Source: Candidatus Parcubacteria bacterium (lineage in GTDB: Bacteria; Patescibacteriota; Minisyncoccia; Phycocordibacterales; CALRHW01). From it: a stretch of DNA of 52,092 nt. The stretch is taken from assembly GCA_009691505.1 (NCBI GenBank), contig SICJ01000001.1:1-52092 (forward strand), read 5' to 3'. The notes under the pieces were generated by a model that ran no database searches, had not been told where the DNA came from, and saw only the letters and a program-made list of their open reading frames with translations. The position numbers and the translations under genes were made by a program. Every line of letters begins with the position of its first letter. Position 1 is the first letter of the stretch. Positions 4,053-51,820 of this stretch are shown here, one piece after another.

Positions 4053-4967
4053 ATGGCAAACAGGCATTTATCAAGATCAATAGTCACACAATCACTTTTT
4101 GAATGGGATTTCAATAAAAAAAGTGCTAAGGAGGCTATGGATATTTTTTCGCGCAACGCTAGCGAATTTGCGACTGGGACAGGTGATTTGGCATTTATGG
4201 AAAACTTGATGAAGAATGTCGTTGCAAAGAAAAAGGATTTGGACGTGATTATAGAAAAAGCCGCGCCAGATTGGCCAATTGATAAAATTTCTATTATTGA
4301 CCGCAACATTTTGCGCATTGGACTTTACGAGCTTCTTTTTGCTGACAGAAAAGAAGTGCCCCCAAAAGTGGCTATAAACGAGGCAATTGAGCTTGCAAAG
4401 ACTTTTGGTGGGGATACGAGTGGAAAGTTTGTAAACGGCGTCCTCGGTGCGGTATATAAAGAAATGGGCGAGCCGGGCAAAGACGAGACTTCAAAAAGAA
4501 AGCGTCACCCAAACATTCCAGACGACCAAGCCCCGATAGAAAAACTCGGAGGAGCTGTCGTTTTTGGAAAAGATGGCGATGACATTTATCTCGCTCTGGT
4601 GCACGATGTTTTCGGACATTGGACACTTTCAAAAGGTCATTTTGAAGAAGGGGAGGAAGATATAGCTGGAATAAAACGTGTTATAAAAGATGAGCTCGGA
4701 CTCAATATAAACGTAAAAGAAGAACTCGGTAATAATGCATATATCGCTTTTTATCCAGAGAAAGGAAAGATAAAAAAACAGGTGCACTACTACCTTGCTG
4801 AGTCAAAATTTGAAGAAATGAAATTAAAAGAAAGTGGTGGACTAGATGACGTGCGTTGGTTCAAACTCGCCGACATCCTTGACCTTAATTTTTATAATGA
4901 TATTCTGCCGACTATAACCAAGGCTATAAACATACTACTTGGGGACACCGCAAAGGGGACAAAGTAG
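4053..4967 (+). CDS. nusB: Transcription antitermination factor NusB fused to a C-terminal Nudix-fold domain
   Basis: The N-terminal ~140 aa is NusB-like (DRNILRIGLYELLF, PPKVAINEAIELAKTFGG, KFVNGVLG). The C-terminal ~140 aa is Nudix-like (WTLSKGHFEEGEEDIAGIKRVIKDELGL). Confidence 0.8.
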   Translation: MANRHLSRSIVTQSLFEWDFNKKSAKEAMDIFSRNASEFATGTGDLAFMENLMKNVVAKKKDLDVIIEKAAPDWPIDKISIIDRNILRIGLYELLFADRKEVPPKVAINEAIELAKTFGGDTSGKFVNGVLGAVYKEMGEPGKDETSKRKRHPNIPDDQAPIEKLGGAVVFGKDGDDIYLALVHDVFGHWTLSKGHFEEGEEDIAGIKRVIKDELGLNINVKEELGNNAYIAFYPEKGKIKKQVHYYLAESKFEEMKLKESGGLDDVRWFKLADILDLNFYNDILPTITKAINILLGDTAKGTK

Positions 4968-5027: not shown

Positions 5028-5720
5028 ATGAACATAGACTTTTCAAAATTTGAAGAAAAATCCGGATTAAAATTCCGCGACAAAACGCTACTGAAACAAG
5101 CGTTTGTTCATCGTTCATATATAAACGAAAACAAAGACTCTGGTCTGGAACACAACGAACGCTTGGAATTTTTAGGTGACGCTGTACTTGAGCTTGTCAT
5201 TACAGATTATTTATACAAAGAGTATCCTGGATCAAATGAAGGTCAGATGACGAGCTTTCGTAGTGCGCTTGTGAATGCAACAACTTGCGCGCGCGTTGCC
5301 ACATCTCTTTTTGTAAATGACTTTTTACTTTTATCTCGCGGAGAAATGAAAGACACTGGTCGCGCACGACAATACATTTTGGCCAACACACTTGAAGCGA
5401 TTATAGGTGCGATTTATGTAGATCAAGGATACGAAGTTGTAAAAGAATTTATTTACAAAAATATTTCACCACTTATCGGAGATATTATTTCAAAGGGCAC
5501 ATGGATAGATTCAAAAAGTTTATTTCAGGAAAAAGCGCAGGAAATGGAAAGCACCACTCCTGCCTATAAAACAACAAAAGAAACTGGGCCTGATCACGAT
5601 AAAAGATTTACGGTGGGCGTGTATCTTGGTAAGAATCTTGTAGCTTCTGGCGAAGGGGAATCAAAACAAGATGCAGAACAAGAGGCTGCACGAAAAGGAC
5701 TTGAAAAGAAGGGGTGGTAA
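5028..5720 (+). CDS. rnc: Ribonuclease III
   Basis: ERLEFLGDAVLELVITDYLY signature and a C-terminal dsRBD (GPDHDKRFTVGVYL...GEGESKQDAEQEAA). Confidence 0.92.
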   Translation: MNIDFSKFEEKSGLKFRDKTLLKQAFVHRSYINENKDSGLEHNERLEFLGDAVLELVITDYLYKEYPGSNEGQMTSFRSALVNATTCARVATSLFVNDFLLLSRGEMKDTGRARQYILANTLEAIIGAIYVDQGYEVVKEFIYKNISPLIGDIISKGTWIDSKSLFQEKAQEMESTTPAYKTTKETGPDHDKRFTVGVYLGKNLVASGEGESKQDAEQEAARKGLEKKGW

Positions 5721-5786
5721 AAAAACAAAGTTAGTTAGAAGTCAAGCATTTTATACGGCTCAAAATAATGCTAATCTTAAGCACAT

Positions 5787-8189
5787 ATGTATCTGAAAGG
5801 TCTGGAAATTAACGGCTTTAAATCATTCGCCAAAAAAAGTAATCTAGAGTTTACATCGGCAATTTCTGCTATCGTTGGCCCAAACGGTTCTGGAAAATCA
5901 AACATCGCCGAGGCGTTTCGTTTTGTGCTTGGCGAACAATCTATAAAATCTTTACGCGGAAAAAAGGGCGAAGATCTGATTTTTAACGGTAGCGCAGACA
6001 CAGGTCGCTCAAATCGTGCTTCTGTAAAAGTAATTTTTGATAATAGAAAAAGATTTTTGAATATTGATTTTGATGAAGTTTCTTTGGAACGTGTCGTGCA
6101 TCGCGATTCTGTAAACGAGTATTTTATAAACGGTAGTCAGGCGCGTCTCAAAGATATCATTGAGCTTCTTTCTGGTGCACACATCGGCTCATCTGGTCAT
6201 CATATTATTTCGCAAGGTGAAGCCGACAAAATTTTAAATGCAAATCTAAAAGATCGTCGCGCGATGATTGAAGATGCGCTTGGTCTAAAAATTTATCAAT
6301 ACAAGCGTCAAGAAAGTGAACGCAAGCTCGGAAAAACGCAGGACAATATTGCATCTGTGGAATCTTTACGAAAAGAAGTTGCGCCACACTTGCGATTTCT
6401 CAAAAAGCAGATGGAGAAAGTGGAAAAAACTTTGCAGATGAAAGATGAGCTTTTAGGGCTTTATTTAGAATATTTGAAGCGTGAAGATGATTATATAAAA
6501 TTTACTCATGCTAGTAATGTAGCGGAACGTGCGCCTTTACAAAAAGAATTACACAAGCTTGAAGCCGAGCTAGCAAGTGCGAAAAAAATCTTGGAGGGCT
6601 CAACGGGAAAAGATAAAAAAAGTATTGAACTTATTTTGCTTGAAGAAAAAATCCGTGGCGTGCGTGTAGAAAAAGATTTTTTAATGCGCGACCTCGGCAG
6701 AATAGAAGGCGAAGTGTCTTCAGAAGAACGTATAATAAAAAAACAAAAAGAAATCGCGCAATCTGAAGAGGGGAAAATGGTGAGTTTGAAAGAAGTTGAA
6801 GGTTTTGTAGATGAAGTTGTCCGAAGCGCCGAAAGCGCGGAGAGTTTGAGCGACATCGGTGCATTAAAAAAACTTTTTGATAATATAAAAAAGATTGTCG
6901 TGGGTTTTGTGGTGAAAAATCGCTCAGGTGGAAATGACGCGCTCGTAAGAGAGTCCGAAGAATATTTGGCTGAGCTTTTTCTACAGAAAAAAGATTTGGA
7001 GGGGAAAGTGGTTTCGCTTGAAAAAAAAGAGGTAGCTTTTCAGGCAGAATACAACGAACTCCGCGCGGAAATTGAGCGAGAAAAAGATACAAACAGAGAA
7101 GCGGAGCGAGCGATGTTTAGCTTGATGACACGACAAAATGAGGTCATTGTGGCGCTCACAAACGTAAAAAATGCTGAAGATAAAATAAAACTTGATGAAG
7201 AAAATTTTAAGCGCGAGCTTGGCGAAGCTCGCGTACTTGTGGGAAGAGCGGTGCTAGATTTTGCGTCGCACACCCTCGCGCCTGCGGGCTCGGGTTCAAC
7301 TACTGGCTCGGACGAAAACGCGAGCGAAAACGCTTTTGGTCACGGTGCCAATATTGTTGCACATACGGGCGAACACACAAACATGAACACAAACGCCGAC
7401 GACTCAAACAAAAACGAACCCCGCGCAGTTCAAGAAGATCGTCACCATGCGATAGAAAAAATTAAAATTCGCATAGAAGACGCGGGCGGAGGAGGAAGCG
7501 ACGAAATAATGAAAGAATTTAAAGAGGTGAGTGAGCGTGATTCTTTTTTGGAGCGAGAGCTTGGCGATTTGCAAAAATCAGCCGAGTCGCTAGAGATTCT
7601 CATCACAGAGCTTGATGAAAAGCTCACAACGGAATTTAAAAACGGTGTGGAAAAAATCAATGTTCAGTTTCAGGAATTTTTCTCACTAATGTTTGGTGGC
7701 GGAAATGCATCGCTACTTGTAGTGAAAGAAAAAAAGAAAAATCGCGCTCGCGACTCTCGCGACGATAGTGACACAGATTTATCTGCCGTGCTTGAAATGG
7801 AAGACGGACAAATTCCAGAAGAGGAAGACGAGCTGGAAGGCTTGGATATTACTGTGAGTCTGCCTCGCAAAAAAATCAAAGGCCTCGTAATGCTTTCTGG
7901 TGGCGAGCGAGCGCTTACCTCTATCGCACTTCTTTTTGCAGTATCTCAGGTAAATCCGCCACCATTTATTATTCTTGATGAAACTGATGCCGCGCTAGAT
8001 GAAGCCAACTCAAGAAAATACGGAGATATGATAGAGAACTTATCAAAATATTCTCAACTTATTTTAATTACACACAATCGCGAGACGATGTCGCGCGCGG
8101 GAATTCTTTACGGCGTAACTATGGGTTCAGGCGGTATTTCAAAATTACTTTCTATTGAGTTTGAGGAGGCTGTGGACGTGGCTAAATAA
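5787..8189 (+). CDS. smc: SMC-family chromosome segregation ATPase, unusually short (800 aa), no recognisable hinge
   Basis: SMC head N-lobe (INGFKSFA...GPNGSGKSNIAEAFRFVLGEQS) and C-lobe (LSGGERALTSIALLFA, ILDETDAALD). The middle is coiled-coil plus a low-complexity linker. Confidence 0.8.
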   Translation: MYLKGLEINGFKSFAKKSNLEFTSAISAIVGPNGSGKSNIAEAFRFVLGEQSIKSLRGKKGEDLIFNGSADTGRSNRASVKVIFDNRKRFLNIDFDEVSLERVVHRDSVNEYFINGSQARLKDIIELLSGAHIGSSGHHIISQGEADKILNANLKDRRAMIEDALGLKIYQYKRQESERKLGKTQDNIASVESLRKEVAPHLRFLKKQMEKVEKTLQMKDELLGLYLEYLKREDDYIKFTHASNVAERAPLQKELHKLEAELASAKKILEGSTGKDKKSIELILLEEKIRGVRVEKDFLMRDLGRIEGEVSSEERIIKKQKEIAQSEEGKMVSLKEVEGFVDEVVRSAESAESLSDIGALKKLFDNIKKIVVGFVVKNRSGGNDALVRESEEYLAELFLQKKDLEGKVVSLEKKEVAFQAEYNELRAEIEREKDTNREAERAMFSLMTRQNEVIVALTNVKNAEDKIKLDEENFKRELGEARVLVGRAVLDFASHTLAPAGSGSTTGSDENASENAFGHGANIVAHTGEHTNMNTNADDSNKNEPRAVQEDRHHAIEKIKIRIEDAGGGGSDEIMKEFKEVSERDSFLERELGDLQKSAESLEILITELDEKLTTEFKNGVEKINVQFQEFFSLMFGGGNASLLVVKEKKKNRARDSRDDSDTDLSAVLEMEDGQIPEEEDELEGLDITVSLPRKKIKGLVMLSGGERALTSIALLFAVSQVNPPPFIILDETDAALDEANSRKYGDMIENLSKYSQLILITHNRETMSRAGILYGVTMGSGGISKLLSIEFEEAVDVAK

Positions 8190-8217: not shown

Positions 8218-8634
8218 TCATATTTTCAAGCCAATTTTTTTAGTAACGACAATCATTTTGTCCTCCAAAATTTCTATCCTTTTTGTGTTGCCTAATGTGT
8301 ACATTTCAAGCTTATCAAATCTATAATCAAATCTTTTTTCCGTTTTTTCAAATCTTTCGTCCACCAAATCAAATTTTTGGTGCATTTCTTCAAATCCTTT
8401 TGCAACCGCTAAAGCTAAATTATCAATCTTACTGTTCGTTGCTATTTCTAAATTATCAATCTTCTTGATTAAAGACGACTTTACTCCATCAATATTCTCA
8501 TTTACTTCTAAAAATCCCTCGTCTACTTTTAAAGACAACTTTCCCACCGTGGAAGACAACTTACCCATTTTTAAAGACAACTTATTCACCGATACAGCCA
8601 ACTTTCCGATTTGTTTCTCAATTGTTTTGCTCAT
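8218..8634 (-). CDS. Hypothetical coiled-coil protein with internal GKLxxxV repeats
   Basis: 138-aa ORF in an otherwise empty gap, with IGKLAVSVNKLSLKMGKLSSTVGKLSLKV repeats and FDxxxERFEK heptads. I recognise no family. It is the only called CDS ending in TGA. Confidence 0.55.
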   Translation of the reverse strand: MSKTIEKQIGKLAVSVNKLSLKMGKLSSTVGKLSLKVDEGFLEVNENIDGVKSSLIKKIDNLEIATNSKIDNLALAVAKGFEEMHQKFDLVDERFEKTEKRFDYRFDKLEMYTLGNTKRIEILEDKMIVVTKKIGLKI

Positions 8635-11816: not shown

Positions 11817-11943
11817 AAGGTAAATAAAATAAAAAGAGTATCTCGAAAAGCACGCGTAAAAGCCTGCTGGCTTTTCTGCTCCGCTCAGCGCTGTTGCGCC
11901 TGCGTGAGTCTTTTCTCAATACTTTTTTTATTTTATTTACCTT
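11817..11943 (+). repeat. Palindromic intergenic element, copy A (core 11850..11908)
   Basis: The ~34-nt AT-rich arms are mutually complementary and flank the core GCACGCGTAAAAGCCTGCTGGCTTTTCTGCTCCGCTCAGCGCTGTTGCGCCTGCGTGAG. It begins 5 nt after the KH-gene stop. Confidence 0.85.
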
Positions 11944-23143: not shown

Positions 23144-23263
23144 ACAAAAAAATAAATAAGTTGTGTTTTCAGAGCACGCGTAAATCGTTGCTACGATTTC
23201 TGCTCCGCTCGGCGCCGTCGCGCCTGCGCGAGTCTCTTAAAACACAACTTATTTATTTTTTGT
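23144..23263 (+). repeat. Palindromic intergenic element, copy B (core 23174..23232)
   Basis: The arms acaaaaaaataaataagttgtgtttt / aaaacacaacttatttattttttgt flank the conserved core. It begins 3 nt after the rpoD stop. Confidence 0.9.
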
Positions 23264-23279
23264 GACCCAGACAATTTTC

Positions 23280-23308
23280 TTGACACAAAGTCACAATAGG
23301 TGTATAGT
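23280..23308 (+). promoter_or_regulatory. Consensus sigma70-type promoter (TTGACA-17-TATAGT) of the orphan cassette
   Basis: ttgaca caaagtcacaataggtg tatagt; same architecture as the rpoB and tRNA-Ala promoters. Confidence 0.6.
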
Positions 23309-23314
23309 AGCAAA

Positions 23315-23464
23315 AGATAGAACCTTGAAACAATTTGCAAACCTCGCCATAGCCTAAAGGGCCTTAAACATAGGGCTTTCTAGGCTATGGCGACATCGTG
23401 TCGCTTGTAGTATGTTTCGTAAACCCGCCACACCTACGCAAGTAGGCAGGCATTTCACTAAAGG
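23315..23464 (+). promoter_or_regulatory. About 150-nt structured 5' leader or small RNA with three hairpins
   Basis: H1 23345..23392 has an 11-bp outer stem (CGCCATAGCCT/AGGCTATGGCG). H2 23390..23404 (GCGACA-TCG-TGTCGC) shares 3 nt with H1. H3 23427..23451 has a CCTAC-GCAA-GTAGG GNRA tetraloop. Confidence 0.45.
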
Positions 23465-23986
23465 ATGATGACGATGGACACATCGATTACATCAATCAAT
23501 AACATCTCAGAATATTTGAGGTTGGTAAGCGGCGAGGAAACCCTCGTCGTCGGTCCGACAGACGGGAAGCGTACTATCGCAGGAGAGGATAATGTTTTTA
23601 CCGGCCACATTAACTCGGATTTCAAGAGTTGGGGTCTCGATGTGAAAGGTAATCCATGTGGTCCAACGAAGGTTGCCGTCCACGAGATAATCAAGGACGG
23701 AAACTTTCAGCAAATTTTCTCTGGCCTGAGTCCTGACCTCAACAGCTTATGCTTGGAACAGGATCAGGTACTGGAATTTGTAAAGCACCGCAGTAAGTGG
23801 CTTCGCACAGACAGATACGCGACATTTTTCCTTTGCAAGGCCGACGGCGAATTCTTTGTTGCGTCTGTCTTTTTTGACGGCTACAGTCGTCTCATTGTCT
23901 CTGCCCATCGATTGTCATTTGGCCATGTCTGGTTCGCCGGGTTTCGCCTTCGTGTCGTTGTCCCGCAACTGACACTTGCAAATTAG
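23465..23986 (+). CDS. Hypothetical protein, 173 aa, no family recognised; GC-shifted
   Basis: Longest ORF between the promoter and a strong terminator, preceded by AAGG. The ATGs at 23465, 23468 and 23474 are all possible starts. No motif recognised. Confidence 0.6.
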   Translation: MMTMDTSITSINNISEYLRLVSGEETLVVGPTDGKRTIAGEDNVFTGHINSDFKSWGLDVKGNPCGPTKVAVHEIIKDGNFQQIFSGLSPDLNSLCLEQDQVLEFVKHRSKWLRTDRYATFFLCKADGEFFVASVFFDGYSRLIVSAHRLSFGHVWFAGFRLRVVVPQLTLAN

Positions 23987-27675: not shown

Positions 27676-27793
27676 CCGCAAAACTCAAAAATACTTTTAA
27701 AATGCACGCGTAAATCGTTGCTACGATTTCTGCTCCGCTCGGCGCCGTCCTCGCCTGCGCGAGACATTTGAAAATCATTTATGAGTTTTACGG
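27676..27793 (+). repeat. Palindromic intergenic element, copy C (core 27704..27763), in the hisS/truB divergent region
   Basis: The arms ccgcaaaactcaaaaatacttttaaaatg / acatttgaaaatcatttatgagttttacgg flank the conserved core. The right arm overlaps the TTG-initiated 5' end of the truB ORF. Confidence 0.85.
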
Positions 27794-28624: not shown

Positions 28625-28721
28625 CAAAATAGCTTTTGAAAAGACTCGCACAGGCGCGTCGGCGCCGAGCGGAGCAGAAATCCCAGCGGGGATTTACGCG
28701 TGCTTTTCAAAAGCTATTTTG
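28625..28721 (-). repeat. Palindromic intergenic element, copy D, inverted orientation (core 28645..28703)
   Basis: The 19-nt arms caaaatagcttttgaaaag / cttttcaaaagctattttg flank the reverse-complemented core. It lies between the convergent truB and typA stops. Confidence 0.9.
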
Positions 28722-33308: not shown

Positions 33309-34413
33309 AAAATTATTAAAAATAAAAAAAATATTTCGCAAACTGTGGGGATTTGGTTTTTTTGGTGCCCAGCTTTCGTTTCGTGAACAAGCGTATTTTA
33401 CTTCGCGTCTTTCTTTTTTAATTGGTGCAGAGATTTCGCTCACTCGTAGTTTAGAAATGCTTCTTGCTCAATCACGGAAAGAAAAGGAGAAAAAAATGCT
33501 TCGCAATATTATTTCAGATGTTTTCAAGGGGGATTTTCTTTCTACAAGTTTAGCTCATTCTCGACCAAAGTTTAACAAGCTCGCTGTGCAAATCATTAAG
33601 ACTGGAGAGATGACGGGGACACTCTGTGCAAATTTACAGCATGTTTCAAACGAACTTAAAAAAAGGCAGTTACTTTGGCAAAAAATAATTGGTGCATTAT
33701 TTTATCCGCTCTGTATTGGTGTGGCTACTATTGGAGTAACTGGAATGATTACTCTATATATACTACCCAAAATCACACCGATTTTTTCTAGCTTAAATGC
33801 AAAACTACCGCTTAGTACGAGAATTCTTTTAGGATTTCACGCGACGATTGTGGAGTATGGAATTTATCTAGTGATAATGTTTCTGATTATTGTTTTTACG
33901 ACAATTTTCTGTTTCAAAAAATACGATAAATTTAGAATACAATTTGAATTACTTTATCTAAAAATCCCACTGTTTGGAGCGATGTTGCAATATTATGAAG
34001 TTGCGCAAACATTTAGAACACTTGGACTTTTATTAAAAAGTAATGTACCACTTAAAGACGCACTACAAAATATTTCTTTTGGCTGTTTAGGTGCTGTGTA
34101 TAAAAAAGAATATCTGACGCTTTCAGAATTTGTCACCCAAGGAATGCCTATGTCGCGTTTTCTTGCGACAAAACCTGCACTCTTTCCGCTCATGGTCAGC
34201 CAAATGCTTTCAGTCGGCGAATCTTCAGGCAATCTCGTAGAAGTGTCCATTTATATTTCCGAATATTTTGAGCGAGAGCTTGATGAAATTATTAAAAAAC
34301 TCGGAAGCTCGCTTGAGCCGATACTGATGGTCGTGATGGGTGTGATTGTGGGATTTGTTGCTATTTCTGTGATTACTCCGATATATGAGATTACTCAAAA
34401 TATTAAAAAATAG
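33301..34413 (+). CDS. Type IV pilus / T2SS platform protein (PilC/GspF/ComGB-like)
   Basis: Two GspF-like repeats with TM segments. The start overlaps the ATPase stop (ATGATTAA). Confidence 0.85.
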   Translation: MIKKLLKIKKIFRKLWGFGFFGAQLSFREQAYFTSRLSFLIGAEISLTRSLEMLLAQSRKEKEKKMLRNIISDVFKGDFLSTSLAHSRPKFNKLAVQIIKTGEMTGTLCANLQHVSNELKKRQLLWQKIIGALFYPLCIGVATIGVTGMITLYILPKITPIFSSLNAKLPLSTRILLGFHATIVEYGIYLVIMFLIIVFTTIFCFKKYDKFRIQFELLYLKIPLFGAMLQYYEVAQTFRTLGLLLKSNVPLKDALQNISFGCLGAVYKKEYLTLSEFVTQGMPMSRFLATKPALFPLMVSQMLSVGESSGNLVEVSIYISEYFERELDEIIKKLGSSLEPILMVVMGVIVGFVAISVITPIYEITQNIKK

Positions 34414-35881
34414 AGCTACGTTGTCGCGCGGATTTTCCACTCTTGAAATACTTATTGCTTTTGCAATTGTAACTTTAGCGTTGTCTGCGGCGGCGAGCGT
34501 TTCTTTTGGCGCTCAGTCACTCGTGCTCGACGGAGAGTTATATTTAGGCTCAATCTTGCGTGCAGAGGAAGTATTTGAAAAAACTTTTATCATGTCTTCG
34601 GAAAATGCTGATGAAACGCAAACAGCAATAAATTTTAATCAGATTGTGAGTGCCAAAAACAAAATAGATGATTTTTACAATGAGAAAATTGAAGTTCTTG
34701 ATATTACGCCATGTATTAAAAAGATGTTGGTCTTTGAAAAGTGGTTGCAGGAAAACACTCCGCACTCTACCTTTTTTTCTCAAGTTTTCTCTTATCCAGC
34801 TTTTGTAGAAAAAAACGGCGAAGCGTGTAGTGACAGAGAACTTTTTCCACAAGATTGGGAAAATTATGAAAATAGTTCATTTTCCGCTGAGCTAGAAAAT
34901 ATTACCGACATTGATGTTGTAGATGATACAGTTTTTATTTCAGCTGATATTCTTGATACTGTGAATGTTGCGGACGGTTCTGTTATTACGCACCCCGACC
35001 TTGTTATTTTTGATATAAAAACCTCTAATTTAAAAATATCCGAGCTAGATGTAGGTGCAGGAATTTTAGCTTTTGATTTTGCAGATGGTTATGTTTTTGC
35101 TGTTGCAGACGCCACCACGAGTCAGTTTGTGGTGATTGATGTACGCGACACAGCACAGCCTGCTTTGATCGCGAAGAGAAGCTTGGTGCTCGTAAATTCA
35201 GAAGGCTCTTATCCGCAAGGTAGAAGTATTAAATATTTTGATTCAAAAGTTTATATTGGAACAAAAGAAACAGCAGGACCAGAATTTCATATTTTTGACG
35301 TCACATATCCTGCAAATCCTATTGAGATTGGTTTTTTGGAAATTACTCACAACATAAACAGTATCGCTGTCCGTGATGACATTGCATATCTTGCAACTTC
35401 CGCCAACAGTAAGGAGTTGATTATCTTAGATGTAAAAAACCCACTTGCAATATCTGAAATGGGTTCATTTAATGCAGGCAACAGCTCACCAAATGACAAA
35501 GATGCGACTAGTATTTATTTGCTTGGAAACACCATTTATCTCGGACGAAAAAGAGGAACGGTGACAAATCCAGAGTTTTACATGATTGATGTCTTTATGC
35601 CTTCGTCGCCATCGCTTTTAGGCACGAGTTTTTTAGGACTCACAGGAACTGCATCAAATATTAGCGAAATAATAGTCAGTAGTAATATCGCTTTTCTGGC
35701 GACCACCGACTCTATAAAAGGTTGGTTTGTCTTGGATGTTTCTGTTCCAGAAAATATTAAAAAAATTTCTACCGGGACTTTTGCGCATCCATTATCGGCG
35801 TTTGATATGAAAAACGGAGTGATTTATAGTGTGAGCTCTTCAGATGTATTGTCAGAAAATAAAATTTATGAAATATTTTAA
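34385..35881 (+). CDS. Prepilin-type N-terminal domain fused to an LVIVD-repeat beta-propeller
   Basis: Class III signal LSRG/FSTLEILIAFAIV with Glu at +5. At least 6 LVIVD-like repeats follow (LVIFDIKTSN, FVVIDVRDTAQP, FHIFDVTYPANP, LIILDVKNPL, FYMIDVFMPSSP, WFVLDVSVPENI). Confidence 0.7.
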   Translation: MRLLKILKNRATLSRGFSTLEILIAFAIVTLALSAAASVSFGAQSLVLDGELYLGSILRAEEVFEKTFIMSSENADETQTAINFNQIVSAKNKIDDFYNEKIEVLDITPCIKKMLVFEKWLQENTPHSTFFSQVFSYPAFVEKNGEACSDRELFPQDWENYENSSFSAELENITDIDVVDDTVFISADILDTVNVADGSVITHPDLVIFDIKTSNLKISELDVGAGILAFDFADGYVFAVADATTSQFVVIDVRDTAQPALIAKRSLVLVNSEGSYPQGRSIKYFDSKVYIGTKETAGPEFHIFDVTYPANPIEIGFLEITHNINSIAVRDDIAYLATSANSKELIILDVKNPLAISEMGSFNAGNSSPNDKDATSIYLLGNTIYLGRKRGTVTNPEFYMIDVFMPSSPSLLGTSFLGLTGTASNISEIIVSSNIAFLATTDSIKGWFVLDVSVPENIKKISTGTFAHPLSAFDMKNGVIYSVSSSDVLSENKIYEIF

Positions 35882-36317
35882 AAAGCAAGGGGGCGCCCGC
35901 GCGTACGCGCGGGCGCAAGGCTTTACCTTAATAGAGGTAATTATTTATATTGGTCTTTCGTCACTTCTTCTAACAGGAGTTATGGTTTCAACATTTCAGC
36001 TAATAGATGGAAACAAATGGTTTTCCAAACATGTAAATGCACTAGTGGAGGGAAATTTTGTCTTGCAAAAAATGGCACCGCTTACACGAGATCTTTCTCA
36101 AGACGACATTTTAAATTTTGAAATTTATTTAAAAAACAGTCGTCTTTGGCTTGTGACAGATAAAAACACATCCACACCACAGGCACTTACAACTATAGAT
36201 GTGGTTGTAGAAAATCTAGAGTTTACACGGATAATAGAGGAGAATGCCATGCAAAGTATCCATTTTATTTTTTTGATTAATGATATGAAGTTTAAAAAAA
36301 TAATATGGTTGAAATAA
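35868..36317 (+). CDS. Type IV pilin-like / pseudopilin protein
   Basis: MKYFKKQGGARAYARAQG/FTLIEVIIYIGLSSLLL is a prepilin cleavage and methylation motif with Glu at +5. Confidence 0.7.
   Translation: MKYFKKQGGARAYARAQGFTLIEVIIYIGLSSLLLTGVMVSTFQLIDGNKWFSKHVNALVEGNFVLQKMAPLTRDLSQDDILNFEIYLKNSRLWLVTDKNTSTPQALTTIDVVVENLEFTRIIEENAMQSIHFIFLINDMKFKKIIWLK
35893..35916. repeat. Perfect 24-bp GC-rich palindrome (GCGCCCGCGCGT/ACGCGCGGGCGC) inside the pilin leader-peptide codons
   Basis: The two 12-nt halves are exact reverse complements, with 22 of 24 positions G/C. It begins 12 nt after the stop of the LVIVD gene. Confidence 0.9.
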
Positions 36318-44906: not shown

Positions 44907-45686
44907 ATGTCTAAAATTCTTATTATAGAGCAAGATGTCTTTTTGGGAGACGTATTAAATCAGAGGATTAAAAAAGACGGATATCAAACACTAGTTATAA
45001 ATAACGGTGCGGTTGCGATTGAGCAAATAACTCTATATAAACCAGACTTGATTATTTTGGATATGGAAATAACCACAGCTGATGTTAATAAAATTTTGGA
45101 AAAAAAGGGTGATTTACCAACAATAGCAAAAATTCCACTCATTATGATTTCACCATCAGGTAATTTAGATGAAATAAAACTAGCAGTAGATTTAGGAGTA
45201 AAAGATTACATCATTAAATCACAGCTCAGCTTAGATGATTTGATGTTGAAAATAAAAACCAATCTTTTAAAACTCACAAAATCTGGTATGGAAGGTGGGC
45301 CTTTGGTTGGTAAAAAAATAATGTGGGTAGAAGACGATCAGTTTTTAAGTGACCTTATTTCACGTAAACTTTCAAAACAAGGTTGTAAATTACTTTATGC
45401 ACCAACAGGTGAAGAGGCACTAAAAGTTTTGGAAAAAGAAACGCCAGATATTTTACTGCTAGATATTTTGCTTCCAGGAATAAACGGTTTTGATATATAT
45501 GAAAAAATAAAAACAGTTGATCGGCTAAAAAATATACCAGTTATAGTTCTTTCTAATTTCTCACAACAAAGTCAGCTTAATCGTGGTAAACAGCTTGGTG
45601 CTGCACGCTTTATCGTAAAGGCTACTATCGTGCTAGACGATCTTGTAAAAGAAATCGCGGCGGTTTTGGAAGAAACCAAGAAATAG
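44907..45686 (+). CDS. Response regulator with two tandem receiver domains and no output domain
   Basis: REC1 has ILIIEQD...LIILDMEI...YIIKS. REC2 has IMWVEDD...ILLLDILLPGINGF...FIVKA. Confidence 0.8.
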   Translation: MSKILIIEQDVFLGDVLNQRIKKDGYQTLVINNGAVAIEQITLYKPDLIILDMEITTADVNKILEKKGDLPTIAKIPLIMISPSGNLDEIKLAVDLGVKDYIIKSQLSLDDLMLKIKTNLLKLTKSGMEGGPLVGKKIMWVEDDQFLSDLISRKLSKQGCKLLYAPTGEEALKVLEKETPDILLLDILLPGINGFDIYEKIKTVDRLKNIPVIVLSNFSQQSQLNRGKQLGAARFIVKATIVLDDLVKEIAAVLEETKK

Positions 45687-45826
45687 AAATAAAAAATAAA
45701 ATAAGACTTGTATTTATAAATGCACGCGTAAATCGTTGCTACGATTTATGCTCCGCTCGGCGCCGTCGCGCCTGTGCGAGGCATTTTTAAACACAAGTCT
45801 TATTTTATTTTTATTTTTTTGTTTCT
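45687..45826 (+). repeat. Palindromic intergenic element, copy E (core 45722..45780)
   Basis: The ~35-nt arms aaataaaaaataaaataagacttgtatttataaatg / gcatttttaaacacaagtcttattttatttttattt flank the core. It starts immediately after the response-regulator stop. Confidence 0.9.
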
Positions 45827-45898
45827 TTCAAAAACAGACCTTTACTGATACACTTTACCCGTAACCCAGTGGCTTGTCCTTGGGCTATAAACCTATAT

Positions 45899-48551: not shown

Positions 48552-49877
48552 ATGAAATCTGCTCAAAAATTTTTATCAAAATTACCAGAAGCGCCGGGAG
48601 TGTATTTTTTTAAAGGTCCGCGAGGACGTGTGCTTTACGTAGGAAAAGCCACCTCACTTCGTGACAGAGTGCGAAGTTATTTTTCTGCGGATATTGTTCA
48701 CACCAGAAGTCCGCTTATTTTAAAGATGCTCGGTGAATTTGTGAAAGTAGATTTTACTCAGACAGACTCCGTGCTTGAAGCACTTATTCTTGAAGCCAAT
48801 TTAATTAGAAAATTAAATCCGCCGTACAACTCAAAAGAAAAAGATAACAAAAGTTTTAATTATGTGATTTTTACAAAGGAGGATTTTCCTAAAATAGTGG
48901 TCGCACGCGGAAGAAGTGTCTCATCAATTTTCCCTAAAGATTTGATAAAGTTTATGTTTGGGCCTTTTCCGCACGGAACACAGCTAAAAGAAGCGATGCG
49001 TATTATTCGCAAGATTTTTCCTTTCAGTGATCAAAAATGTGTACCGAGCGGAGTGCAAATAAAAAATCAAAAAAAAGAAAAACAAGGCAGACTTCCACGA
49101 GCGTGTTTCAATTATCAAATAGGACTATGTCCGGGAGTGTGCGTAGACGCTGTGACGAAAAAAGAATACGGTGAGATAATAAAAAATCTTCGCCTATTTT
49201 TTGAAGGAAAAAAGAAGGCAGTTTTGCGAAACCTTGAAAAACAAATGCGTGGTTTCGCGCGAGAAAAAAAGTTTGAAAAGGCGGGGGAAGTGAAGAAAAC
49301 GATTTTTGCTTTAAATCATATTCAAGATATTGCACTTTTGAAACATAGCACGGCAGACAAAAATGATATGAGTTCGTTTGGTGGAAAAGTCGCGAGCGGT
49401 ATGGAAAATTTTAATGACACCATCGCCCCTGACAAAAGTTTCCGCATAGAAGCATACGACGTCGCGCACTTAAATGGGACAAATGTTGTCGGCGTGATGA
49501 CCGTAGTAGAAGACGGTGAGCTAGCAAAATCGCAATATAGAAAGTTTAAAATAAAAATAAACCCGGGAATAAATGACATCGCCGCACTTAAAGAAATACT
49601 ACGTCGCAGACTCGAGCATTTGCAGTGGACTCTTCCAAACTTGATAGTATTAGATGGTGCACAAGCGCAGATAAATGCGGCACAAGGGGTACTAAAAGAA
49701 AGAGGATTTAACATAGACCTAGTATCCGTGGTAAAAGACGAACACCATAAAGCGCGCGAGATACTAGGAGAAAAAAGATTTATAGAAAAACACAGCCGTG
49801 CAATACTTCTTGCAAATGCCGAATCTCACCGTTTTGCTATAGGTTTTCATAGAAAACTTCGAAGAAAGATACGCTAA
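48552..49877 (+). CDS. uvrC: Excinuclease ABC subunit C, short form (441 aa) without the C-terminal HhH region
   Basis: GIY-YIG (GVYFFKG...VLYVGKATSLRDRVRSYF), a UVR motif (FEKAGEVKKTIFALNHI) and an endonuclease V-like domain. It ends at ...HRFAIGFHRKLRRKIR. Confidence 0.85.
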   Translation: MKSAQKFLSKLPEAPGVYFFKGPRGRVLYVGKATSLRDRVRSYFSADIVHTRSPLILKMLGEFVKVDFTQTDSVLEALILEANLIRKLNPPYNSKEKDNKSFNYVIFTKEDFPKIVVARGRSVSSIFPKDLIKFMFGPFPHGTQLKEAMRIIRKIFPFSDQKCVPSGVQIKNQKKEKQGRLPRACFNYQIGLCPGVCVDAVTKKEYGEIIKNLRLFFEGKKKAVLRNLEKQMRGFAREKKFEKAGEVKKTIFALNHIQDIALLKHSTADKNDMSSFGGKVASGMENFNDTIAPDKSFRIEAYDVAHLNGTNVVGVMTVVEDGELAKSQYRKFKIKINPGINDIAALKEILRRRLEHLQWTLPNLIVLDGAQAQINAAQGVLKERGFNIDLVSVVKDEHHKAREILGEKRFIEKHSRAILLANAESHRFAIGFHRKLRRKIR

Positions 49878-49994
49878 CAAACTTTTAAAACATCGTCTGA
49901 AAAGCACGCGTAAAAATCTGCTGATTTTTCTGCTCCGCTCGGCGCCGCCCTCGCCTGCGCGAGTCTTTTCATACAATGTTTTATAAAGTTTGTT
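49876..49994 (+). repeat. Palindromic intergenic element, copy F (core 49904..49963)
   Basis: The arms aacaaacttttaaaacatcgtctgaaaag / tcttttcatacaatgttttataaagtttgtt flank the core. The left arm overlaps the uvrC stop codon. Confidence 0.9.
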
Positions 49995-51744: not shown

Positions 51745-51820
51745 GGGCCCTTAGCTTAGTTGGTAGAGCGCCTCATTTGCAATGAGGAGGTCATCGGTTC
51801 GAATCCGATAGGGTCCACCA
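51745..51820 (+). tRNA. tRNA-Ala (anticodon UGC), CCA encoded
   Basis: The manual cloverleaf has acceptor GGGCCCT/AGGGTCC with the G3:U70 Ala identity pair, anticodon loop TTTGCAA and T-loop TTCGAAT; 76 nt. Confidence 0.92.

Follow-up and report, generated by a model that had tools for sequence, protein, structure and literature searches.

ERIC/IRU repeats of the enterobacteria and Yersinia are imperfect palindromes of about 127 bp that resemble miniature inverted-repeat transposable elements (MITEs), are conserved over their full length and use TA as their insertion site. In the Correia elements (CREE/NEMIS) of Neisseria, the 26-bp terminal inverted repeats are conserved and the centre varies, and there is a TA duplication. 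Repetitive extragenic palindromic (REP) sequences of 20–40 nt consist of a conserved palindrome with a conserved 5' tetranucleotide. In REPINs the arms are conserved and the loop varies; both kinds are mobilised by RAYT, a Y1 HUH transposase. The attC sites of integrons carry conserved outer R and L boxes (RYYYAAC and GTTRRRY) and a variable tip, and are found with cassettes and IntI. Palindromes are also shaped by quasipalindrome template-switch mutagenesis, known from the Ripley model and from work in E. coli by Lovett and others. Genomes of the Candidate Phyla Radiation (CPR), which includes the Parcubacteria, measure about 1 Mb and are thought to be poor in repetitive or selfish DNA. Here we describe six palindromic elements, copies A to F, in a 52,092-nt stretch of DNA (contig SICJ01000001.1 of assembly GCA_009691505.1, hereafter the window), which has a G+C content of 39% and is placed by TypA in a Candidatus Parcubacteria metagenome-assembled genome (MAG). 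Each element carries a conserved G+C-rich core at the tip of long A+T-rich arms. We interpret them, with a probability of roughly 0.55, as MITE-like, non-autonomous DNA palindromes that are recognised through their folded tip.

We searched the window with a degenerate pattern spanning two thirds of the core from its left end (GCACGCGTAAA-N5-GCT-N4-TTTNTGCTCCGCTC), using 100 dinucleotide shuffles of the window as the null. There were exactly six matches, starting at 11850, 23174, 27704, 45722 and 49904 on the plus strand and at 28703 on the minus strand, and none in the shuffles. The elements also rank first to sixth among the short-range inverted repeats of the window, with arms of 19–37 nt that are 83–100% complementary and lie 57–60 nt apart. 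All six fold into one long hairpin with the core at its tip, and each spans 97–140 bp with no open reading frame (ORF) inside.

Copy A (11817–11943, plus strand; arms 11817–11850 and 11910–11943, core 11850–11908) lies between khpA, the KH gene, and trmD, and begins 5 nt past the khpA stop codon. Copy B (23144–23263, plus strand; arms 23147–23174 and 23234–23261, core 23174–23232) begins 3 nt past the rpoD stop (23140), is bounded on its other side by a promoter-like site at 23280–23308, and is followed by a hypothetical gene. Copy C (27676–27793, plus strand; arms 27676–27704 and 27765–27793, 60-nt core 27704–27763) separates the divergent starts of hisS and truB. Copy D (28625–28721, minus strand; arms 28625–28643 and 28703–28721, 100% complementary; core 28645–28703) sits between the convergent genes truB and typA, 8 nt past the typA stop and in the sense of typA. 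Copy E (45687–45826, plus strand; arms 45687–45723 and 45781–45817, core 45722–45780) follows the stop codon of a response-regulator gene at 0 nt, with uvrA downstream, and a weaker outer pairing (45664–45694 with 45803–45833) enters the end of the response-regulator gene. Copy F (49876–49994, plus strand; arms 49883–49904 and 49965–49986, 60-nt core 49904–49963) lies between uvrC and ddl; of its outer arms, the left one takes in the uvrC stop and the right one the ancestral ddl promoter (TGTTATAAT). Copies A, B, E and F are in sense orientation to the gene upstream. A first-pass annotation of the window had reported these six places and their core strings, the identities of the KH, rpoD, typA, response-regulator and uvrC genes, an RNase III gene (rnc, at 5028–5720), and the position of five copies 0–8 nt past a stop codon in sense orientation. 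All of this agrees with the sequence, copy F being the one that overlaps its stop. The same annotation regarded the region as otherwise free of repeats, and we found no other dispersed repeat of note in the window, nor, by inverted-repeat search, any long A+T-rich hairpin that lacks a core.

Conservation is concentrated in the core. Mean identity among the six window copies is 84% in the core and about 50% between arms, as expected of the genuine repeat family, a conserved core on divergent self-complementary arms, that had been proposed. In an alignment of 17 copies, on which the consensus and conservation figures are based, core identity is 95% when the eight covarying positions of hairpin 1 are left out. 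The consensus is a long outer stem capped by a three-way junction, giving a Y-shaped G+C-rich tip of 59–60 nt. The stem that closes the junction consists of G-C and C-G pairs plus a mostly-T bulge. Hairpin 1 has the consensus GCG/TGC plus AAA-N4-TGCT-N4-TTT (AAATCGT-TGCT-ACGATTT in copy B, at 23182–23199 on the plus strand). The second branch (plus strand, 23204–23231 in copy B) has a lower stem, TCCGC/GCG-C-GA, that bears hairpin 2, GGCGC-loop-GCGCC (GGCGC-CGTC-GCGCC at 23211–23224). GCTC repeats adjoin the junction (TGCTCCGCTCGG).

The alignment also supports this fold through compensating changes. The four distal pairs of hairpin 1 covary freely and take at least five compensated forms, that of copy A being AAAGCC/GGCTTT, and the TGCT loop and the AAA/TTT base are invariant; the helix is 98.8% paired, with double changes in four pairs. 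Over the whole structure 94.4% of cells are paired, compared with 74.6% in shuffles and 40–57% when the partners are slid. Double-sided changes occur in 27 of 44 pairs, and none of 500 shuffles reached the observed values. Diverged members (V1 and V2 of locus L003, and the second family described below, in loci L026 and L005) keep the same Y fold with compensating changes in hairpin 2. The tip is constrained in both sequence and fold.

We considered the possibility that the similarity arose by chance or from an adapter or assembly error. Contigs often end in an element (loci L006, L012, L015, L024 and L028), indicating that the element disturbs assembly. Copy A, in turn, is present without a single base difference in three independent assemblies and so is not an assembly artefact; orthologous copies are found in several MAGs of different studies, none would be expected by chance, and the pairing covaries. 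On the strength of the chance expectation, the covariation and the independent assemblies of copy A, we exclude an artefact for practical purposes.

The elements differ in their presence between close relatives. For this comparison we read about 260 kb around matches, the comparative sequence consisting throughout of MAGs and metagenome contigs. The outgroups (L020/L026 and L021/L027) have 87–88% TypA identity to the window, and a closer set (L018, L019, L022, L023 and L025) has 97%. Site C is empty in L020, L021 and L007, where the spacer is 35 nt, and site F is empty in L026 and L027, with a spacer of approximately 20–25 nt. The element is also absent at site B in L021 and at site E in L027 and L025; L026 has an element of the second family at site E. 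Empty orthologous sites had been named as a check of mobility, and the outgroups provide them. Site C is compatible with a target-site duplication of 0–3 nt (TCT), site F has no clear one, and at the remaining sites the flanks have diverged too far for a duplication to be recognised. Site D is occupied in L007, directly past the typA stop, by an ortholog that matches copy D in its hairpin-1 allele and has an arm homologous to that of D. The two cores differ at 3 of 59 positions (95% identity), and the TruB and HisRS proteins of the two genomes are 56% and 78% identical, respectively.

In the 97% relatives the core is missing at B, C, D and E, and remnants of the arms are kept. At site B, L018 and L022 retain the left arm and 38 nt of core, followed by a 342-nt deletion (window 23212–23553). 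At site D only the left arm is present in L018 and L019, and sites C and E hold scraps. A second-family copy upstream of ndk in a window-like strain (L028) has lost 56 nt of core between two 7-nt TCAAAAA repeats, leaving a clean 28-bp hairpin with an 8-nt loop.

Inversion of the core was found at one further locus, where L153, L154 and L014 have it in forward orientation and L005 has its reverse complement. Between L153 and L005 the left flank has 11 differences in 2879 nt and the right flank none in 1365 nt, and the β-CASP protein encoded in L153 and L154 is 100% identical to that of L005. An outgroup (L029, 5395–5465) has a different long hairpin at this site, with arms of about 13–25 bp (AAAAAACACTTCC / GGAAGTGTTTTTT) and a 29-nt tip that includes a small GC hairpin; this may be a terminator, a third type of element or a decayed copy. 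Replacement of the core is seen at site F. Copy F and its ortholog in L013 have the same arms, their hairpin-1 alleles differ by four compensated pairs, and hairpin 2 differs too, which indicates that cores can be exchanged between hairpins. In addition, two hairpin-1 and two hairpin-2 alleles occur in all four combinations among B, C, F and L005. Since close relatives differ by the gain, loss, inversion or overwriting of copies, the copies behave as mobile DNA and not as a fixed regulatory RNA. The element is a multi-copy non-coding DNA palindrome that is gained and lost between relatives and inherited as a whole hairpin, and its core is subject to inversion, to deletion and to recombination with other copies.

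These observations bear on the alternative that the element is a host-functional RNA module at mRNA 3' ends, with an AU-rich duplex acting as terminator, stabiliser or RNase III substrate and an apical junction that binds a CPR protein. The placement of five copies just past stop codons in sense orientation would suit such a role, as would the rpoD stop and the strong promoter-like site that flank copy B, the several copies between convergent genes, where a bidirectional hairpin would be useful, and the scarcity of canonical terminators in the window. The 95% conservation of the orthologous D core and the junction topology kept in diverged members point the same way; rnc is present in the window, though its presence tests nothing. 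The pairing, however, is almost purely Watson-Crick, with G·U in approximately 5 of 748 cells plus one invariant G·T, and arm mismatches on the sense strand comprise 16 C·A, 5 G·T and 13 C·T. Pairing of this kind, with C·A exceeding G·T, resembles a DNA inverted repeat and not a selected RNA helix. Both orientations of the core exist at one locus in near-identical strains, in L005 and V2 the element runs antisense to the gene upstream of it, and copy C and the main L003 copy lie between divergent gene starts. Four of the six cores are lost in a 97% relative in which the flanking housekeeping genes are intact, save the hypothetical ORF next to B, and no Rfam family matches. With respect to intrinsic termination, which would call for a G+C-rich stem immediately before a U-run at the 3' end of a gene, the position fits. 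The stems that adjoin the T-runs consist of A/T-rich sequence, the T-runs take part in the pairing, and a consensus scan calls none of the elements. We thus obtained no positive support for the 3'-untranslated-region or RNase III role that had been suggested at first, and regard an RNA module as unlikely, if still worth serious consideration.

Classical terminators are found at corresponding places in other genomes, past typA in L021 and past truB in L007. The typA-truB spacers of the outgroups (L020, 11756–12338; L021, 11756–12111) are 350–580 nt long and partly G+C-rich. That of L020 holds a 172-aa ORF with no Pfam match, the terminator of L021 stands directly past typA, and neither the covariance model nor Rfam found anything in these spacers.

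The arms are less independent of one another than their low identity suggests. The first-pass annotation had described arms that differ strongly between loci and yet remain self-complementary. The complementarity in each copy and the identity of about 50% stand, but the arms are not unrelated. Most copies share the sequence ...TTTNGAAAAG directly before the core and TCTTTTC... directly after it, and the window copies have closer kin, arms as well as core, at different loci of other genomes: A with L009 and L011, B with L005, D with L002, and E with L006. The D arm also resembles those of L007 and V2. Copies A, L009 and L011 lie in unrelated contexts and still have in common about 20 nt of both arms and the same internal mismatch of 3–5 nt. 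Because paralogs share the same asymmetric internal mismatch, the arms are not made afresh from each locus, and regeneration of one arm by snap-back at each transposition is ruled out on the same ground. As read from these alignments, the inner arms, approximately 18–30 nt, are inherited along with the core between paralogous loci, contrary to the initial view that arms arise independently at each locus.

The outermost 9–13 nt of the arms of C, E and F appear to have a different origin. When compared with the outgroups, one side coincides with ancestral flank and the other carries a new mirror copy of it: for F the ddl promoter ATAAAGTTTGTTA(TAAT), for E the last codons of the response regulator, and for C TGTAGAAT. 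The evidence that outer arms mirror local flanks is moderate, because the matches are short and A+T-rich. The suggestion that the core palindromises its flanks is supported to this extent by the outer arms, and not by the inherited inner ones. We also considered whether the site in L018 could represent the state of site D before insertion, with arms copied from the flanks. This candidate was rejected: the same arm motif (CAAAATAGC) is present in L007 (as CAAAACAGC) and, at a different locus, in V2, and L018 also keeps B and C remnants that the outgroups lack.

An alternative consistent with part of these data is that the core alone is mobile, entering the tips of existing hairpins such as terminators or palindromising its flanks, with the arms being local. 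Different cores on the same arms in F and L013 fit this proposal, as do the overlap of the outer arms of C, E and F with ancestral flank, the entry of copy C into the centre of a small ancestral palindrome (ATTCT-TGT-AGAAT), the different long hairpin of the outgroup at the L005 site, and a variant in Vogelbacteria (see below) that has a second AT-armed hairpin instead of hairpin 2. Set against this are the homology of inner arms and asymmetric internal mismatch between paralogs at unrelated loci of different genomes, the empty sites of C and F, which have no hairpin matching the new 20–35 nt arms, and the lack of long core-less A+T hairpins elsewhere in the window. Movement of the core alone is accordingly improbable, and of the small mobile core first envisaged only the exchange of cores on given arms is retained, the whole hairpin with its inner arms being inherited.

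A second alternative treats the core as a recombination or attachment site carried on a hairpin, comparable to attC or dif, with the short elements as unoccupied sites and DNA insertion between GCTCCGCTCG and GCGCC. In copy B this point falls between positions 23211 and 23212, and it is both the junction of the 342-nt deletion in L018 and the point at which the Vogelbacteria variant diverges. Two independent junctions (the deletion in L018/L022 and the variant in L008/L010) thus coincide at one nucleotide; hairpin-1 and hairpin-2 alleles re-assort; and contig L017 (Ga0208942_1030100, 847–957) fuses an L006/L012-type flank to an L011/L016-type flank exactly at the core. The shared junction coincides, however, with the base of hairpin 2; breaks at this point would also be expected from slippage or from a peripheral hairpin that varies. 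The L017 fusion may reflect true recombination between copies, or it may be a chimera that the assembler built across the 59-nt repeat. At none of the copies did we see a gene for an integrase or recombinase, or any cargo, and the left-half pattern found no occupied sites save the Vogelbacteria variant. We consider a recombination site very improbable.

Our favoured interpretation is that of a mobile palindromic DNA repeat. The mobile unit would be the whole hairpin, consisting of the 59–60 nt G+C-rich core and at least 18–30 nt of both arms. When single-stranded or extruded, the core would fold into a Y- or T-shaped three-way junction whose tip may be read by a trans-acting protein; recognition of the folded tip would explain why the tip is conserved on a stem that needs only to pair. 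The element would then spread by trans-mobilisation. After insertion in a short intergenic spacer, the palindrome may grow outward as one flank is copied to the other side by template switching, and template switching within quasipalindromes may likewise maintain the complementarity of the arms. Outward growth until coding sequence is reached would explain arms that start 0–8 nt past stop codons. The loci compared show that the core inverts between the arms, is overwritten by other copies through gene conversion or recombination, and is lost by deletions that begin in or at the core. Once transcribed, the hairpin may well serve as a terminator or other 3'-end structure, because copies sit past stop codons and before the next promoter; such a role would be a by-product and not the reason for conservation.

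A more specific and considerably more speculative version, which we judge improbable, is an 'inside-out' mobile element whose enzyme recognises the folded three-way-junction tip and not the termini. Nicking at or near the junction, between GCTCCGCTCG and GCGCC, would be followed by synthesis resembling hairpin transfer, and this one process would yield the flip/flop of the core, the replacement of the core and the mirror-copied flanks as new arms. If true, the element would be a chromosomal bacterial counterpart of parvoviral inverted-terminal-repeat (ITR) chemistry, or a new structure-specific system of transposition or recombination in CPR bacteria.

Several points weigh against interpretation of the elements as mobile DNA repeats. 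Neither the called genes around the copies nor Pfam scans revealed an autonomous partner or a transposase; the adjoining genes are housekeeping genes. No consistent target-site duplication or conserved terminal motif is present, the termini being fuzzy A+T-rich sequence. The core of D and its L007 ortholog is kept over a large divergence, which could mean a host function. The sense orientation is found in 6 of 8 copies between co-directional gene pairs, and selfish DNA predicts no such bias. The inversion is known from MAG and metagenome assemblies, of which three have the forward orientation and a single one, L005, the reverse; L005 carries private substitutions. Finally, the mirroring of flanks rests on short A+T-rich matches.

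Compared with the described systems, these elements fail the defining tests of the MITE, Correia, REP, attC and Rfam families while behaving like ERIC/IRU, Correia and REPIN repeats. Like MITEs they are short, non-coding, multi-copy and insertion-polymorphic, with empty orthologous sites, but they do not have terminal inverted repeats that are conserved between copies or match an autonomous insertion sequence. ERIC/IRU repeats, compared here by description, resemble them in a size of about 100–140 bp, an intergenic position often just 3' of ORFs, a fold into one long hairpin, presence or absence among relatives and the lack of coding capacity. They differ in that the present elements keep only a non-palindromic G+C-rich tip, have arms that are about 50% identical, show no TA duplication and belong to another phylum. 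Correia elements are likewise short palindromes at gene ends that give an RNase III-type substrate when transcribed and can carry or abut promoters; the conservation pattern of the present elements is the opposite. REP sequences and REPINs share with them the extragenic hairpin thought to be read as folded single-stranded DNA by a trans-acting enzyme, the many copies and concerted evolution. Here, by contrast, a 59-nt non-palindromic tip is conserved and the arms vary, and no RAYT-like gene was found among the called genes in the sequence read around matches.

In attC sites, too, the folded single strand and not the sequence of the stem defines function, and length is variable. The present elements nevertheless have a conserved tip and variable A/T-rich outer ends, have no cassettes or integrase, and neighbour housekeeping genes. 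The annotation had called this pattern the reverse of that of attC sites and MITEs, an apt description of a conserved tip on a variable stem. The closest structural analogue, by analogy only, is the T-shaped flip/flop ITR of parvoviruses such as adeno-associated virus, in which a long stem bears two small hairpins at a three-way junction, the asymmetric tip occurs in flip and flop forms, and GCTC repeats stand next to the junction. The present copies, however, are internal to long chromosomal contigs and not at the ends of linear replicons, no Rep/HUH gene is known here, and ordinary recombination of one arm with the other would suffice to explain the inversion. Quasipalindrome template switching would account for arm complementarity without selection and for the extension of the palindrome into the flanks at C, E and F. 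Such switching is a process of mutation, not a family of elements, and explains neither the spread of the element nor the conservation of the core.

To determine the distribution of the family we scanned 185,579 GTDB species representatives once with the pattern GCACGCGTAAA-N10-20-TGCTCCGCTC. Database scans used exact patterns, so that diverged members are under-sampled. Thirteen loci were obtained, 12 of them in the four MAGs CALRHW01, CAYTVX01 (L002, L004, L007 and L009), JAXLZT01 (L003) and JAPLZN01 (the Vogelbacteria MAG; L008 and L010). The thirteenth, in Rubrivivax (L001, 72% G+C), was rejected as a member: it has neither hairpin 1 nor arms, and about three chance matches are expected in 596 Gb. 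A pattern scan of JGI metagenomes gave four short contigs, all orthologs of known loci, and a covariance model built for the family added diverged members. Copies outside the window thus amount to at least 12 loci, in related MAGs only. The record of CAYTVX01 is titled 'uncultured Candidatus Saccharibacteria bacterium', which would suggest conservation across phyla. We rejected this possibility: CAYTVX01 is syntenic with the window (the L007 contig has the same hisS-truB ... typA order) and lies no farther from it than the Paceibacterota outgroups do. Its taxonomic label seems to be in error, unless the bin is mixed. Given this synteny, the family is, as far as the sequences scanned can tell, restricted to one Parcubacteria/Paceibacteria clade of the CPR and not distributed across phyla.

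Searches of databases and literature returned no described counterpart. In Rfam 15, a gathering-score scan of the whole window found only a tRNA (51745–51817), an E-value scan of copy B gave only sub-threshold chance matches, and scans of the Vogelbacteria and Rubrivivax loci gave nothing. BLAST against phage and plasmid collections found no match. IMG/VR contained no match to the left-half core pattern or to a 30-mer of the second family. A viral origin was considered from a 14-mer, which has at least 120 matches in IMG/VR; all are chance matches in GC-rich viruses, and the covariance model finds no element in 80 of these loci. Derivation of the core from ribosomal or transfer RNA was rejected after short-query BLAST against all fetched loci, a 23S gene included, found nothing. 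No relevant description was found in the literature on palindromic repeats or MITEs of CPR/Patescibacteria. The early statement that no described family is recognisable thus holds for Rfam, the phage and plasmid collections, IMG/VR and the literature searched. The elements are an undescribed, CPR-specific family of palindromic repeats in which conservation is inside-out relative to the classical ones.

A second family is built in the same way around a core that is homologous to that of the first but distinct from it, GGGGTCGCGAGGCTGTCGAGCCGAGCGCTTCAGG-ATTTTTT-AAGCTTC-AAAAAAT-CCGTACC. It occurs in L005 (44–130), L026 (5827–5940), L153 (1–45) and L028 (75–140). The 30-mer TCGCGAGGCTGTCGAGCCGAGCGCTTCAGG is identical in L005 and L026, which are different loci with unrelated arms. 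In L003, three family members lie within 4.3 kb and adjoin rplJ and rplL; the diverged copy V2 (4572–4678) is approximately 390 nt upstream of the 23S rRNA gene of JAXLZT01 (5066–7998).

The Vogelbacteria variant (L008, 2772–2945; L010, 7791–7920) keeps just the first 38 nt of the core, and was the only longer element with the left core half in the genome, metagenome and viral scans. Its hairpin 2 is replaced by a second AT-armed hairpin (CCAATCAAGAAAATAATCAAG ... CTTCTTGTTATTTTCTAATTGG), whose centre is a different GC-rich sequence of about 70 nt. If the insert were followed by ...GCCTGCGCGAG, the variant would represent an expanded hairpin 2. Both contigs end in the variant, and small REP-like hairpins (GTCATTCC...GGAATC and ATTGCGAGG...GCAATC) are located just upstream.

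Other features of the window were recorded alongside the elements. The promoter-like site downstream of copy B (23280–23308) is strong, TTGACA-17-TATAGT, and is followed by a hairpin with 23-bp arms and a 4-nt loop (23344–23393) that has no Rfam match. The hypothetical ORF downstream (23465–23986) has no Pfam match. The stretch 23280–23400, which the 342-nt deletion of the 97% relatives removes entirely, may be a leader or a small RNA. At 8506–8610, five tandem 21-nt units (TTTTAAAGACAACTT...) lie in a minus-strand ORF (8218–8634, 138 aa, no Pfam match) and would encode a 7-residue protein repeat. At 35893–35916 a perfect 24-nt G+C-rich palindrome, GCGCCCGCGCGTACGCGCGGGCGC, stands in A+T-rich surroundings at the overlap of the ORFs 34385–35881 and 35844–36317.

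The window thus holds a CPR/Parcubacteria repeat in six short spacers within 52 kb of core housekeeping genes, and the repeat turns over between relatives that are 97% identical, which indicates active genome dynamics in minimal genomes. Its fixed tip and free stem point to a folded DNA (or RNA) junction that is read by some protein. For work on these lineages, the element breaks metagenome assemblies and may produce chimeric contigs, and its presence or absence and its flip state offer a strain-level marker. If it is merely a MITE-like repeat that doubles as a terminator, its interest would be moderate and specialist.

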